Source: Eledone cirrhosa
Taxonomy: Eukaryota
DNA length: 64,000 nt
NCBI GenBank assembly: GCA_964016885.1
Contig: OZ024741.1
Location: 58,652,001 to 58,716,000 of the forward strand
Direction: 5' to 3'
Part shown: one piece after another, positions 15,795 to 64,000 of the stretch
Position numbering within the stretch: the first letter of the stretch is position 1
Layout: each line of letters begins with the position of its first letter
Made by a program: the position numbers and the translations under genes
Notes under the pieces: generated by a model
Told to the model about the DNA's origin: nothing
The model's database searches: none
The model's input: only the letters and a program-made list of their open reading frames with translations

Positions 15795-15990
15795 AAATAT
15801 AGAGTGAGAAATGGGTTCTACAGGACTAGAACTGTTTCATTCAAAGAAAATCATCAGGGCTTTCCTGATGATTTCCTTCGAATGAAACAGTTCTAATCCT
15901 GTAGAAGCCATTTCTATTCTAAATTTGTTGTATACACTCTACTAATGTATTGAGTAGCTTACTTACTGTGGTTACCCCTGATTACTCATA
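15795..15990. mobile_element. Penelope-like foldback element with a hammerhead motif on each strand
   Basis: Arms about 15795-15858 and 15864-15925. Plus strand ggctttc-CTGATGA-tttccttcgaat-GAAAC-ag..ct-GTA-gaagcc (15858-15909), with stem I ggctt(t)c/gaagcc. The reverse complement carries the same core. Confidence 0.7.
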
Positions 15991-19034: not shown

Positions 19035-22000
19035 ATGAATGTAGGCACCTTAAAAGGCCGCTCTAAGGAGGTTGATGTTTGCTGTATCCAAGAGACCAGG
19101 TGGAGGGGCGGGTCTGCTAGATTCATTGTGGGTAAAAAAGGATGCTATAAGCTTTTCTGGGTGGGAAATGACAATGAGCTGGGTCGGGTAGGAATCGTGT
19201 TAGCAGAAAAATGGGTGGATAAGATAATAGATGTAAATAGAGTGAATGACAGAATAATTAAAATAAGACTTGTTCTAAATAGAACTACTGTGACAGTAAT
19301 ATCTGCGTACGCACCCCAATCCGGACTGCCCGGCACTATAAAAGACAGATTCTATGAGACACTGATGCTCACTACCTCCCAAACAACCAACAGTAACTAT
19401 ATAATTATTGCTGGCGACCTAAATGGTAACGTTGGACAACATTGCGGCGGCTATGACGAAATCCATGGAGGCTATGGGTTTGGTACTAGAAATGAGGAAG
19501 GCTCTAGAATCCTGTAATTGTGTGACGCAAATAACCTAACTATCTGTAACACTAACTTCAAAAAACGAGACAATCACTTGATCACCTACAGATCAGGGGA
19601 ACATACCAGCCAGGTAGATTATATCCTTACCAGAAGACGTGACAGAGTATCTGTTGTAAACACTAAATCCCTCCCCCATGAACAATGCACCTCCCAACAT
19701 AAACTTATAATTAGCGACCTCATAGTCAGGACGAGACGTACTCGACAACAGAAGAGGACTATCCTCAGGAGAAAAATATGGAAGCTAAAGGACCCCACAG
19801 CCAGTAATAAATTTAAAAGCATATTACTTGATGCTTTTGACAGTAAGGAAGAGCAATTAGAGTCGTACAATATAGAGGAACAGTGGGAATTCCTGAAAGC
19901 AAACCTGCTGATGGCGTCAGATGAAGTCTGTGGCTGGAGCAGGCCTATAGGCAGGAGGAGAGTAACGTGGTGGTGGAACAGTAAGGTGGAGGAGTCAATT
20001 AAGGCCAAAAAGCAGGCTTGGAAAGTATGGCGGGATGGGGAAGTAGAGAAGACTATCAAGTGGCCAGGAGGGAAGCTAGGAGCCAAGTGTACTTCGCAAG
20101 AAGGGAAGCAGAGGAAAGAAAGTTCAAGCATGTTCTACAACGTGAGGTGTTCAGGATTGCTAGGCAATGTGTCAAGGAAAACTGTGATATTGTCAGGGAG
20201 AAGTGTGTCCTTAATGATGAAGGTGTACTTGCCATCACTGACACTGATAAGAAGGTATCTTGGAAGTGTCACTACGAAAGGCTACTAAATGAGGACAATA
20301 AATGGGAGAAAGACAGTCTCCCCCACATCGATCCAATAGAGGGACCAGCAGTGTTAGTCGAAGGTAGTATAATAAGTAAGGCAATCAAAGATATGAAGAC
20401 GGGTAAGGCGGCTAGCCTTTCAGAAATAGTTGCTGAAATGCTGAAAGCTTCTGGATCGGTGTGACACACCATGGTCACCCAGATAGTAAACCAAGTCATA
20501 CAGAATGGGGTTGTTCCGAAGGACTCGCGTAGCAGTATCATCATTAACTGCTACAAGGGTAAAGGAGATGCCCTGGATAGGGGTAACTATAGAGGCATTA
20601 AATTAATCGACCAGGTCATGAAGGTCACAGAAAAAGTAATAGCGCAACTAATCAGAGAGCGAATTGATCTAGATGAGATGTAGTTCAGGTTTGTCTCAGG
20701 TAAAAGTACCACAGACGCTCTTTTCAATGTACGACAACTACAGGAGAAGTACCTAGCTAAAAGTAAACCCCTATACTTAGCTTTTGTCGACTTGGAGAAA
20801 GCCTTTGACAGAGTCACCCGTTCCATTATCTGGTGGGCTCTTAGAAAACTAGGTGTTGATGAATGGCTTGTGAGAGCTATACAAGCCATGTATAAAGAAA
20901 CAGTCAGCAAGGTTAGAATTAACAACGAATATAGTGAAGAGTTTAGCGTAAAAGTTGTTCATCAGGGCTCCGTTCTTAGCCCCGTACTATTTATTATTGC
21001 CTTCAGGCTATAACAGTGGAGTTCAAGACCGGCTGCCCATGGGAACTCTTATACGCAGATGATCTAACGCTCATAGCTGAATCAATGGCCGAACTAGAGA
21101 AGAAATTCCAAACATGGAAGCATGGCCTAGAATCAAAAGGCCTTAAAATTAACCTGTCTAAGACTAAAGTTCTAGTTTGTAGGAAGGAAAATAGGGCACC
21201 GATCCCATCCGGGAAATGGCCATGCTCAGTGTGTAGGAAGGAGTAGGCAGAAACTCCATTTTATGTCCCAAATGCAAAGTATGGGTGCATAAAAGATGTA
21301 GTGGGATCACAGGTAAGCTAACTAAGAACATAGATTTTATATGTGGCCGGTGCTCTGGTATAATAAGTAGCAGCAAGTGCCCACAGAATACTAGCTCATT
21401 CCTTTGCACAGATGGTTCTATAGAAATAGTGGACAGCTTCCGTTACCTGGGTGACAAAATCAGCAGTGGGGGGGAGTGCTCTGAAAGTACAGTAGCTAGA
21501 GTCAGAACTGGATGGAAAAAGTTCAGAGAGCTTATACCAATATTAGCCGCTAAAGGGTTCTCTCTAAAAATGAAAGGCAGGCTGTATGATGCCTGCATAC
21601 AAACAGCAATGTTACATGGCAGTGAGACCTGGGCATTGTGTGCAGAGGATATACGCAGACTGGAGAGGAACGAAGCTTGCATGCTCCGCTGGATGTGTAA
21701 TAGTAATATATGTGAACGGCAAAGCATAAACGAACTAAGGGAAAAATTAGAAATAAGAGGGATCAGATGTTGTTTACTCGAGAGAAGACTACGTTGGTAT
21801 GGTCACGTGATGCGCATGAAAGACGACAGCTGTATAAAAAAGTGCAGGGCAATAAAAATAGACGGTAGCCACGGAGTAGGCAGACCCAGAAAAACCTGGG
21901 ACGACTTGATAAATTCCGACCTCACACACTTACACCTCTCCAAGACAATGTCACTGGACTGAGATCTTTGGCGCTACACAGTAATACAGAAGACCCGCCT

Positions 22001-24583: not shown

Positions 24584-26920
24584 ACCATATTCTCTCATGT
24601 AAAATAGAAGAAATTTTAAACAAAAATTAAGAACAAAAAAAGAGGGTCGACTTTTACATAAGTACACATTTTCAGGCATTTTTACTAATCTAAAAAATAC
24701 TTATTTTAAATGGCAAGATTGAGCTGGCTCCAAGTGAATCCACTGTATCACAAACTGACTCTCATTCCATAGCAATTACAGACATCCAACACAAATATTG
24801 TCAGCAATATATAGAAACCTTTATACTAATTTGATTTTGTAATATATATTTTTTTTAATTAATTTTGTATTTTCCCCCCACCCACTTAATTTTTAATAAA
24901 TATTATAATGTTAGTGCCATGATCAAATCCACCTTGTACACTCTGTGAAATAGTAGTGCTGAGGCCATAAAACACACTTTACACATTCTGTAAAGCAGTA
25001 GAGCTGGTTCCATGGTAAATGGCATCCAGTATACTCTGTAAAGTGGTTGGCAAATGGAAATGCATTCAGCTGTAGAAACCATGTCAAATAAGGAATATAT
25101 GAACATGATGTGGTTCCCGAACCAGTCTAGTCTCAGACCATCTCAATCCATCCAACCTATGCCAGCATGGATAGCTGACATAAAAAAAAAATTTTCAAAA
25201 CATTCTGCGCCAATTTCCCAAATAAGATGTTTTAAAATTTCTCCTGTGGCATATTCACAACCATTTATCCTGTATATTCTTATATGCTACCTTTGCCATG
25301 TGCTATGTGAATCTAGTTTAAACCTATCATTACGATATCTCTCATGAAAGATACTGCCTATGATTCTCAAGTCATTTTGAAAATAATTAAAAATTTGAAG
25401 AGATTTAGCAATATAACTAATTTCTCATTATTAAGCTGTTTTTTGGAGCATAACTTAAAAGATTCTTGTATAGAATTATGATGGAAGACTTTTAATAATT
25501 ATAAATACCTTTAAAAATAACAGTTTTATACTATAGAACCAGACTGAGTTTCAAGCAATTTAGTATCAAAAGTCTTAATTTACCATAACAGTATTCAATA
25601 TAAGGATAATGGTTGTGGTGTAATTCTGTCTTCACAATATGAATTAAATTCAACTATTAATGTTGCAATTACTGTTTACATCACAAATGACATATAGAGA
25701 GATATAAAATAGCTTTCCTTAACCATATTTCTGATAAAAGACACTGCCTATGATTTTCAAATAATGTGGAAAATAATAAAAGATTTGGAGGAATTTAGTT
25801 ATATAAGTAACTTGCTAATTATCAAGTTGATGTTCAAAACATAACTTAAAGGTTCTCACATGAAATTATGTTTGAAAGTTTTTAGATAAATAGAACCAAG
25901 ATCAGTTTCAGGTAATTTGGTATCAAAAGAATTAGAATAGCTACACTATATCACTGTCATATGAGGTAACCAAAACTATTGGTGTCATGAAGTACATCTC
26001 GTTATAAAACATTGTGTGAAAAAGAATCTTATGGGGCCCTCATGGCTAACCCCAGCTTTAGCACGGAAAATGGACATAAAACACTTATGTTGTATTGTTG
26101 ATAGTGGTTGCAATTGTAGTTATGCCATAGCTTATTAGCTTTAATAACAGCTGTGCATAAATAAAAGAGTTTAAAACCACACATTTTTTACCTATTAACA
26201 ACTTTTCTCTGTCTTAATTGATTCACTTAGCAGAAAATCGTCAATTTGTTAAACCATTTACTTCTCTCCTTAAAAGAAAAAATACAACAATGCTATCATT
26301 GCTGGTATATCTTAATTCTTTTCATTAATCGAATTAGGAAACCAACCTGATAAACCAAAGTAAAGTATTTTGTATTTATTTTTTTGTAATAAAGAGAAAC
26401 TAAAGGTTTCCAAAGTTTGTTAGTGTTGTTGCTGCCTGATAAAAGTTTTTGAAGGAAGCAGTTATCTTTGTACTTCTACATTTATTTTTCAATGGTTTGA
26501 ACATTAATGGACTGTTTTATAGAAATGGAACATACAGATCCTATTATCATAGTCAAATAAGAATGTGTGTGCATGCCTGCATGTGTGTATGTGTCTGTGT
26601 TTATATATTGAAAAAACGTTTGTAAAGTGATGTGTGTGTGTGTATATATATATATAGTGTGTGTATACAAATATATATGAATCTATATATAGGTGTGTAT
26701 GTGTATATATGTATATATATATGTGTGCGTGTGTATATATAAATATGTGTGTGTATATGAATGAATTATAAAAGTTAATGGAAAACTGATAAGAGGATAT
26801 TAGATTGTAAAGAAAAGAATATAACAAACTTCTGATTTCTTGTGAATGTTGTCTGATTTGTGTTGCATGTTTAACAACAAAATATAATTATGTTTATATC
26901 TACACATATATATATATAAC

Positions 26921-27145
26921 AGGAACAAGTGTGACCCTGACGGCAGAGCTCAAGTCGTTTCGACGGCTAATTAATGTAATAATAAATGGATTAAATCTTA
27001 CATGCAGTTCAGAATTAGCCATCGAAACGGCTTGACCTCTGCCGTCGGGGTCATACTTGTTCCTTTTACCCACTCTACTACCCTAAGTATTGAGTACTTT
27101 GGTGCGTTATGGTCCATCTGGTTCCTTATCACATTTCCTTTGTTA
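26921..27145. mobile_element. Penelope-like foldback terminus: 52-bp inverted arms around a 40-nt host-exon-derived loop
   Basis: Arms 26921-26972 and 27013-27064 have 47/52 complementary positions. Half-hammerhead GAAAC-GGC..GCC-GTC at 27024-27046. The tail cactctacta..gtattgagta resembles 15935-15960. Flanked by (TA)n. Confidence 0.7.
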
Positions 27146-27880
27146 TATATATATATAACAAAAGTAACAAAGATCGCTGGTATAAATACAGCGTCCCCTG
27201 GCCATATATATATAATTATATTTTGTTGTTAAAAATATATACATACGTATAAATTTTTTTATTTGTAATATACATGTGTGTGTGATTATATTTATAATAT
27301 ATTATACCCTATTAAATGTTCAGTCAGGGGCCTTATGCAGCTATTCTGGAATAAAATATAATTTGAATCACTGTGATCAATTATATTTATTATAATAGCT
27401 CACAGTATTATCTTCATATGTAAACTATTTTTTTTTTTGTAACAGTCTTTACAAAATAAGTTAAAGTAGTAAGAGACAGTGTATATATGACTATTGTGAT
27501 ATGTTATATAACTGTTACCTACCATTGGTCACCTGGCCTTGAACAAACAAAACTTTATCCTTGCTGAACATAAGTCAATCTATCTAGTGCTGGTGCCAAT
27601 GGTTAGAGAATGAGCTGAGACAATGTAGAATTAAGAAAACTATTTAGTTTTGTTGAGAACGTAACAAAAACAAAGTAGGGCCAAGAGGACCCTTTAGTCT
27701 TGCTGAAAACACAACCTCTCTTGTGTTGATGTCATGATAAAATGCACCTGATATGTATTTTATCAATTTTTTTTTATCGAACAGCTAAGTTAAAGGACGT
27801 AAATAAACATTAAATGTAAGCATACAGACAAACTTGTTTGAATACTTATTAAAAGTATCATTTTTCTCCTTCTTTTCTAG

Positions 27881-28186
27881 ATTCCGAACTGGTCCCGGAG
27901 TGATACCAAGTAAAGTCCCTAAAAGCACTGAAAATGTGATACTTGTCTTGAATGGACGGGAACCGTCCAAAATAGATTTTGCCAAATTGTGGCTTGATTT
28001 CCTTCCAACGTTAACAAATTTAAAAAATGTGGCTGTGATTTTATTGGGCAATGAACAATGTAATAATGAATGGATTAAATCTTACATGCAGCTCAGAGGT
28101 GGGCCTGTAAAGTTTGTCTTTTTGGTCTATGATAGTCCCGATATTGATGACCAGAACTTCTACCAGTGGCCTTTAGGAGTTGCAAC
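27881..28186 (+). CDS. RXYLT1: Internal coding exon of ribitol-5-phosphate xylosyltransferase 1 (TMEM5/RXYLT1 orthologue)
   Basis: Translation FRTGPGVIPSKVPKSTENVILVLNGREPSKIDFAKLWL...VAVILLGNEQCNNEWIKSYMQLRGGPVKFVFLVYDSPDIDDQNFYQWPLGVAT matches the recalled human TMEM5 segment (ITGPAVIP..NVVLILNGRE..AVVLLGNEHCDNEWI..YDSPWI..FQWPLGVAT). Polypyrimidine acceptor tttttctccttcttttctAG ends at 27880 and donor AC|GTAAGT starts at 28187. Length 306 nt, phase 2 at both ends. Confidence 0.93.
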
Positions 28187-28911: not shown

Positions 28912-29338
28912 TAATGGGTACAAGTGAGTAAAAGTCCCAATTAAGAGGAGTAGAAATACATGGACACATAGAAGTAGAATACGTGGAAAAGCACATTAAT
29001 AAAGCAAAGGTATAAATATATAAATAAACCAACAAGAGTGGTGGTGGAGTAAGATGGAGAAATCAAGACATAGGAGAAATACAATATAGTTCAGGTTGCA
29101 GTATTTTTGTTCCCAGGGGGAGACATTCTAATGTCGTGTGCTAATGGGTACACGCGAGTAAAAGTCCGAATAAGAGGAGTAAAAGCTACATGGATGTATA
29201 GAAGTAGAATACGTGGAAAAAACATTAATACAGCAAAGGTAGAAAGATATAAAGATATAAATAAACAAACAAGAGTGGTGGTGGAGTAAATGGAGAAATC
29301 AAAACACAGGAGAAATACAATATAGTTCAAGTTGCAGT
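28912..29338. repeat. Direct repeat pair of about 190 bp (28912-29102 and 29142-29338)
   Basis: taatgggtaca..gagtaaaagtcc..agaagtagaatacgtggaaaa..aacaagagtggtggtggagtaa..aggagaaatacaatatagttca.gttgcagt occurs twice with a spacer of about 40 nt. Confidence 0.9.
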
Positions 29339-63149: not shown

Positions 63150-64000
63150 ATATATTTTACTCAACGCCTACGACAGTAAAGAAGAACAGATAGAGACATT
63201 CAATGTAGAAGAGCACTGGGAGTTCCTAAAAAATAACTTACTAGAGGCGACGGATGAGATCTGTGGCTGGAGTAAGACCACAAGCAGGAGGAGAGTGACT
63301 TGGTGGTGGAACAATAAGGTAGATGAGGCAGTTAAGGCCAAGAGACAGGCATGGAAAGAATGGAAGAATGGGGGAAGCAGGGTACATTACATAGAGACCA
63401 AGAGGGAAGCTAGGCGACAAGTATACTTAGCTAGGAGGGAAGCAGAGGATAGAAAATTCAAGCATGTTTTGCAACGTGAGGACCAGAAACAGGAGGTGTT
63501 CAAGATTGTGAGGCAGTGTGTCAGAGAGAATTGTGATGTCATTGGAGAGAAGTGTATCCGGAATGATAAAGGTGAGCTTGCCCTCACAAGTGCTGAGAAG
63601 AAAGATGCATGGAAGAGCCATTATGATAGATTACTAAATGAGGAGAATGCATGGGAAGAAGAGACCCTACCCCAAGTATACCCTATAGTGGGGCCAGCAG
63701 TACAAGTCAGCAGCAGTGTAGTAAGTAAGGCAATCAAAGATATGAAGATGGGGAAGGCAACCGGTCCATCGGGTATAGCTGCCGAGATGCTGAAGGCATC
63801 TGGGTCTGTAGGTCACACTATAACCACACGTATTGTTAACCAGGTAATACTAGAAGGTGTCATACCAAAAGATTGGTGCAGTAGCATCATTGTCAACTGC
63901 TACAAAGGTAAAGGCGATGCACTAGATTGAGGAAACTATAGAGGTATAAAGCTGATGGACCAGGTCATGAAAGTAACAGAAAGAGTTATAGCACAGTTGA
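63150..64000 (+). mobile_element. 5'-truncated RTE LINE copy of the same family, running off the window end
   Basis: ORF 63103-63930 aligns by eye with 19830-20600 (WWWNNKV, GKATGPSGIAAEMLK, CYKGKGDALD). TGA at 63928 replaces R in DRGNYRG, consistent with CpG decay. It begins right after a (TA)n tract. Confidence 0.92.

Follow-up and report, generated by a model that had tools for sequence, protein, structure and literature searches.

A Penelope-like foldback element in an RXYLT1 intron of Eledone cirrhosa carries a captured piece of the neighbouring exon at its inverted junction

The window analysed here is a stretch of 64,000 nucleotides of the Eledone cirrhosa genome (contig OZ024741.1, positions 58,652,001 to 58,716,000). 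It holds a coding exon of RXYLT1, the product of which is 95% identical to an Argonauta hians protein, and one contig of run X4 covers only this exon and looks spliced. Upstream, about 72 kb separate it from the previous RXYLT1 exon; downstream, the distance to the next one is 39 kb. Hence, the small foldback element upstream of the exon is located in a 72-kb RXYLT1 intron. The element extends from 26917 to 27145 and is longer than the arms as first described (26921-27064). Its features are listed in Table 1.

Table 1. Features of the foldback element and of the captured exon in the window.
Feature	Position	Strand	Remarks
Left (TA)n target remnant	26904..26918	.	From sequence; family copies as a rule have (TA)n on their flanks
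Short inverted arm	26917..26972	-	Piece of the pseudo-LTR, from the short outer end inward, without 7 inner bases
Captured host sequence, 33 nt	26973..27005	+	32/33 identical to exon positions 28057-28089
Inner end of long arm (fixed truncation point, likely RNA +1)	27006..27013	+	
Long arm, 3' half of hammerhead-like fold	27006..27065	+	
80-nt one-sided tail	27066..27145	+	Lies between the outer ends, at parent-unit positions +60 and +140
Right (TA)n target remnant	27144..27158	.	From sequence
RXYLT1 coding exon	27881..28186	+	Pfam RXYLT1_N, E 1.4e-41
Capture source (28057-28089) plus microhomology (28090-28097)	28057..28097	+	Inside the RXYLT1 exon

The arms are near-perfect inverted repeats (z about -12), and the 5 mismatches that the earlier note gave for the 52-bp segments 26921-26972 and 27013-27064 were confirmed. 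The long arm contains the 3' strand of stem II, GAAAC, stem III, GUC and the 3' strand of stem I of a hammerhead-like fold. In the left arm, 7 inner bases that most family copies retain are gone. Judged by its sequence, the feature derives from a young Penelope-like element (PLE), of which it is a 5'-truncated copy in head-to-head arrangement. Like other copies of the family, which lie in (TA)n, measure roughly 200 bp and have one short arm and one long arm with an 80-nt tail, it has (TA)n on both sides. Further repeats surround it. An A/T-rich inverted repeat (26867-26899 and 27204-27236) flanks the element, a short piece of another repeat (27161-27205) follows directly 3' of the right (TA)n, and positions 27142-27205 are matched by contigs of a relative's run (X5).

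The loop between the 52-bp arms (26973-27012) matches exon positions 28057-28096 at 38 of 40 nucleotides, on the same strand and about 1 kb away, as had been claimed. In contrast, the proposed loop bounds and the proposed 1-nt microhomology on the right had to be revised. The family arm reaches 7 bases further inward than the right arm first described; these bases, 27006-27012, read AGTCCAG in the family arm and occur as an AGTTCAG variant in other copies. Consequently, the capture measures 33 nt, the T at 27008 derives from the element, and the junction microhomology is 8 nt with one mismatch (27006-27013 against exon 28090-28097, 7/8). The 33-nt core scored 29 against the surrounding 10 kb, whereas none of 2000 letter shuffles reached this score (best 15), so that the match is not due to chance. 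The 33-nt capture and the exon differ by one G>A change, which lies in the copy; at this position, sequence from a relative's run agrees with the exon. No clean microhomology was found at the left junction. The 20 nt upstream in the parent element loosely resemble the exon at the capture site, a likeness in sequence that may have helped annealing. That RXYLT1 was the captured gene is most likely incidental.

A DNA search gave 4,555 first-look candidates, and 1,070 matches with longer upstream sequence led to a frame with a GIY-YIG endonuclease. The parent's relatives are young (98% identical), and many have an open frame of 784 codons. The parent consists of 3,531-bp units in partial tandem arrangement (L182, L184), which forms pseudo-LTRs that hold both the arm and the tail. 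Its single open reading frame encodes a protein of 717 aa from the ATG, with the reverse transcriptase (RT) motifs FDIESYY and YRDD and a C-terminal YIGLT..FK.R endonuclease, as read from the translation. A Pfam search of this protein returned no family; 2,049 relatives were found, mostly unnamed, of which the best carries PF01541. Furthermore, inverted 5'-truncated copies had the tail on exactly one side in 115 of 120 fetched foldbacks, a non-random sample. The Penelope-like origin suspected for the arms is thus supported by a parent with intact RT and GIY-YIG domains, whose pseudo-LTR contains the arm. A tandem array of intact, near-identical 3,531-bp PLE units is present at L182 (G000:C1:437198000-437207900). 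As far as sequence can tell, this array and the genome-wide copies with 784 codons point to a family that is active now or was so very recently.

The parent shares DKT, the CxCX5C linker, the CxxC and CxH of the endonuclease and insertion into (TA)n with the Hydra clade, as described in the accessible text of PMC8557442. That clade has RWK, a length of generally <3 kb and a canonical hammerhead, whereas the parent has RWR, a unit of 3.5 kb and the core YUGAGAA. In view of these differences we call the element Hydra-like, an assignment set by motif description, without filing it firmly in the clade. The Hydra families in the supplements of PMC8557442 may include the present family. An origin as MITE or Pack-MULE was rejected, because the arms are pseudo-LTR pieces of an RT element, the tail is asymmetric, and the cargo maps to each copy's own neighbourhood.

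Folded without constraints, the pseudo-LTR is predicted to form a three-way junction around unpaired YUGAGAA, GAAA and GUC. Of 42 distinct parent copies, 20 have the core CUGAGAA and 17 have UUGAGAA, both of which depart from CUGANGA; a U3-A8 pair is a working hammerhead variant. Rfam gave no hammerhead match in the window or in a parent-like copy. Comparison with the parent supported the view that the arms are limited to the 3' half of this hammerhead-like fold. The window copy is no ribozyme, since its stems I and II are without their 5' strands and the core is missing. The exon copy had been placed where the CUGANGA half would be expected, but the parent core starts about 45 nt upstream of the arm. 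The exon copy therefore replaces truncated sequence and does not sit at the core position. A parent with a canonical CUGANGA core was sought as well and rejected: 12 matches lay just before the arm, and by eye none was such a parent, most being foldback centres and two chimeras. In chimeras at L032 and L035 (around 1500), other hammerhead-bearing repeat families are joined to the family arm, at L032 at the homologous place in stem II, which suggests template switches between different PLE RNAs. The window itself contains a second small foldback family (15795-15926) with a canonical CUGAUGA...GAAAC core, folded back just 5' of the core, and pieces of this family also flank L031 and L041.

We counted at least 9,531 foldbacks in the genome, 9,037 with a centre of 6-35 nt and 494 with a centre of 36-66 nt; the counts rest on exact patterns, which leave out diverged copies and favour young arms. 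Most centres are tiny, A/T-rich or derived from the arms. The short arm ended at the same base in 93 of the 120 fetched foldbacks. In an unselected set, consisting of the first 50 sites with short centres on contig 1, none reached the parent sequence upstream of AGTCCAG, and 37 had centres of at most 11 nt. The inner-end point reads TTAGTC or TCAGTC, which resembles the initiator consensus. In the tandem parent it is located 231 nt before the ATG, with the outer ends at +60 and +140. Given this truncation point and the initiator-like sequence, the fixed inner end is likely the 5' end of the RNA; no downstream promoter element was evident by eye at the putative start site. An internal promoter in the pseudo-LTR has been described for Drosophila Penelope, according to the available part of PMC2377424. 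The base that follows the inner end was C in 38 and T in 5 of 191 arms, where all 61 parent-like copies predict A. This excess of C fits copying of the cap G; full-length L1 is reported to carry an additional, cap-derived G (PMC11702581). Alternatively, the C could have been added without template in the ordinary way and then been selected because it pairs with G.

In the 48 hand-picked centres described below, the tailed arm had the fuller inner end in 23 cases and the short arm in 13, and in 12 cases the two arms did not differ. The ratio of 23 to 13 leans to the tailed arm, the direction expected of snap-back, but is not different from 50:50 (p 0.13). Among 114 longer centres the corresponding numbers were 27, 25 and 62. 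Because the fuller inner end occurs on both arms, neither arm is always a copy of the other. The two arms of a foldback mostly share subfamily markers, which fits one template molecule, under twin priming or snap-back. Two of 118 centres consist of antisense parent sequence (+191-220, 30/30 identical, and +332-358, 26/27). Both parent segments lie downstream of the tail, and neither was found in the local DNA. These antisense centres imply that jumps onto the element's own transcript occur; such sequence would be supplied by a transcript running from the pseudo-LTR into the ORF. Two foldbacks 44 Mb apart (G000:C2:305478729 and C2:349972839) have one complex centre in common, which may reflect duplication or a foldback that moved again. 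Another foldback, L185 (G000:C3:345710000-345719900), lies within a 5.4-kb tandem unit with long asparagine-coding triplet repeats. N-rich segments adjoining Penelope copies are noted in the available text of PMC3846280.

To the window we added 47 other sites, picked by eye for foreign or partly foreign centres, and fetched 10 kb around each. Local capture was defined as a piece scoring at least 20 within 5 kb and beating the score of the same piece in all 47 other loci. By this definition, 23 of the 48 centres contained a local capture, i.e., the window and 22 of the 47 other hand-picked loci. Hence, loops are locus-specific and locally derived at other sites too, and the templated filler is not the one-off of the simplest reading in the earlier note. 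The captured pieces were 20-78 nt long and originated 188-4,617 nt away (median 687), 16 of 23 within 1,250 nt (p 1e-5 against a uniform distribution). Relative to the element, 11 of 22 were in direct orientation, a measure independent of the transcribed strand of the host, and 11 of 22 came from the tail side. The remaining 25 of 48 centres failed the local test; some were derived from the element, some were of low complexity, and a few had shorter local matches. One of them, L152, had a 20/21 match at -1,176 nt with a score of 17, below the threshold of 20. The centres of L134, L146 and L150 had no source within 25 kb on each side.

Among the first 50 sites with long centres, four passed the local test, with 10-kb context examined for eight and the others judged by eye as arm-derived or A/T. 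This extrapolates to about 40 of the 494 long centres, near 0.4% of the counted foldbacks. Most capture sources were microsatellite, repeat or other non-coding sequence. A Pfam scan covered 49 open frames from 18 loci, the other five loci being without an open frame of 45 aa over the source, and recognised only the source in the window. Loops were thus not enriched for exon sequence, since Pfam recognised a coding frame at no more than 1 of 23 sources. The mismatch between filler and source (2.5%) was similar to that between the arms (2.2%; rho 0.43, p 0.054), and the arms were identical in 10 of the 23 capture loci. The like age of fillers and arms, together with the 23 local sources, upholds the view that the loop was copied from local host sequence, probably during integration. 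Among filler mismatches the A>G class was in excess (9 vs 3), which was not significant (p 0.07), and the mismatch of the RXYLT1 capture itself is of the opposite kind, G>A. One further site, L127 (G000:C3 near 248802737), was excluded from the 48 because it is without a short arm; there the tailed arm runs to the fixed point and is followed by about 60 nt of the adjoining host flank, duplicated in inverted orientation.

We consider the loop very probably a by-product filler of PLE insertion, whichever polymerase and template produced it. In the mechanism that we propose, a transcript would start at the A of AGTCC in the 5' pseudo-LTR, and the protein would cut both strands of (TA)n and prime internally at +140 and +60 from the two DNA ends. 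By analogy with PMC11167929, as far as its available text goes, the mini copies would arise by this internal priming on the 5' pseudo-LTR. Both cDNAs would then extend to +1, giving two identical 3' ends unable to anneal. The ends would be joined by pairing of 1-3 nt after untemplated additions, by arm stutter or by a template jump, either onto the element's own RNA or onto host sequence within a few kb, and the product would be an inert filler. In the window, the strand to be copied by the long-arm cDNA is the RXYLT1 sense strand. There is about an even chance, in our estimate, that the RT, after running off its RNA template, used the 8-nt microhomology to jump onto this sense strand, probably a nascent transcript. 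Strict snap-back from the tailed arm as the only route was rejected, as 13 of 36 asymmetric junctions have the opposite polarity; junctions with the fuller short arm are impossible by snap-back from a tailed first strand and possible by two-strand priming. Self-priming may still make a share of the inverted junctions, and rotifer junctions of this type are read as self-priming in the accessible part of PMC3846280. More broadly, the foldbacks might be a genome-wide fossil record of two-strand priming at two internal sites near the 5' end of a capped transcript, run-off at the cap and bridging of the cDNA ends by jumps onto host RNA nascent within a few kb, a tentative and rather doubtful proposition. 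If it is true, the captured loops preserve nascent germline transcripts as cDNA, some of it with A-to-I edits fixed in the DNA.

The filler may instead have been copied from local DNA, resected or invaded, by end joining of the polymerase theta type or by the RT on DNA, a realistic possibility that falls short of an even chance. The fillers combine A/T runs, arm fragments and local pieces into patchworks of the kind described for polymerase theta (PMC12426944), their sources lie on both sides and both strands and thin out with distance, and the inverted duplication of the adjoining flank at L127 is a DNA-templated event. Moreover, the accessible parts of the cited studies describe R2 cDNA ends that can prime on nearby rDNA (PMC11371274) and templated genomic insertions of L1 (bioRxiv 2024.08.27.596794; PMC11702581). 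However, the captures here are 20-78 nt long and come from 0.2-4.6 kb away, whereas theta insertions are said to measure mostly <25 bp and to derive from the flanks, and in the L1 cases the template is no more than 15 bp from the site. In addition, the two antisense centres derive from the element's transcript and not from local DNA. The transcript-derived centres, the kilobase reach, the sense polarity in the window and the weak excess of the A>G class favour an RNA template; against the RT jump we count that no filler is shown across a splice junction and that clean microhomology is missing on the left side of the window copy. We slightly favour the RT jump over DNA copying. A later origin of the centre, in which a clean palindrome was inserted and its middle rewritten after cruciform cutting and repair with a local patch, is improbable. 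The near-perfect inverted arms inside (TA)n would suit such a centre-break mechanism, and mixed arm polarity would follow. Yet captures occur in the youngest copies, including those with identical arms, fillers and arms have diverged alike, duplicated insertions retain the same centre, and centres with the element's downstream transcript sequence require that RNA was present.

An assembly artefact, with exon bases pasted between repeat arms, is barely credible. The aligned contigs, which were swamped by family copies, included none bridging the loop, but the copy differs from the exon at one base, joins the arms at exact family positions with microhomology, and has parallels at 22 other loci on several contigs. 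The earlier note had also speculated on a regulatory role. Cephalopods are known for heavy A-to-I editing, the arms form a long duplex, and the loop, if transcribed in antisense, would bind the exon at -55 kcal/mol, so that the loop could be a selected antisense guide (siRNA precursor or ADAR-recruiting hairpin) for RXYLT1 mRNA. We regard this as very unlikely, since in the pre-mRNA the loop has sense orientation and little pairing with the exon (-14 kcal/mol), the captured sequence has diverged from its source, nearly all captured sources are outside recognisable exons, and captures are confined to a minute share of the foldbacks. The regulatory reading is therefore not supported, and we interpret the loop as a junction filler of a recurrent but rare kind rather than as part of a guide system.

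As far as their available text goes, published PLEs (PMC8557442; PMC3846280) share several features with the present family, namely inverted 5'-truncated copies, head-to-head pseudo-LTR copies with a one-sided tail, junction palindromes, partial tandems and microsatellite targets. In the same portions, the tail is 30-40 nt instead of 80 nt, and the host DNA spacer of rotifer Pen1 measures 0.9-1.5 kb instead of 20-78 nt. Unlike those published PLEs, both copies end here at one fixed point, in at least 9,531 copies, and the host piece, whose source is less than 5 kb away, occupies the inverted junction. Anole Poseidon PAc, studied in vitro (PMC11167929, accessible text), likewise has two internal RT starts that define the tail, both target strands are cut and extended, and uncleaved hammerhead RNA serves as template, matching the mechanism proposed here. 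The second-strand and junction steps were left unvalidated. PAc belongs to a different clade, and the available text reports neither a fixed 5' stop nor host capture.

In L1, near-site host sequence is also copied into the junction, with one case of co-inserted local pre-mRNA, and twin priming similarly uses two DNA ends primed on one RNA (available parts of bioRxiv 2024.08.27.596794; PMC10191854; PMC11702581). The L1 templates in these sources typically lie within 15 bp of the site, in contrast to the kb range here, and twin priming yields adjacent, non-overlapping RNA parts, where the foldbacks contain two copies of the same 5' segment. Snap-back in R2, where the cDNA 3' end primes on itself or on nearby target DNA (PMC11371274), and the patchwork fillers with minimal pairing of polymerase theta (PMC12426944) are comparable as well; relative to the accessible descriptions of both, the foldbacks differ in kilobase reach, longer pieces and a position between two inverted cDNA ends. 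The literature searched, mainly open-access, described no fixed-end PLE mini-foldbacks in cephalopods and no kilobase-range capture at PLE inverted junctions.

The route by which PLEs produce inverted, tailed insertions is stated to be unresolved in the available parts of PMC11167929 and PMC8557442. The present family, a young one with intact copies, offers more than 9,500 junctions that are short and alignable, have one fixed inner and two fixed outer ends and contain mappable fillers. Given the whole genome and its annotation, twin priming versus snap-back, cap copying, and RNA versus DNA templates thereby become testable by counting, so that the foldbacks are useful mainly as a large natural record of Penelope integration. 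Their thousands of near-perfect duplexes of 50-60 bp across the genome are also a plausible supply of substrates for editing and small RNAs. Elsewhere in the window, broken endonuclease and RT frames, which we take to be LINE-like, occur at 19518-21959 and 63154-63995, with a second partial copy. Finally, the intron after the RXYLT1 exon contains a direct duplication of about 230 bp with 86% identity (28912-29338).
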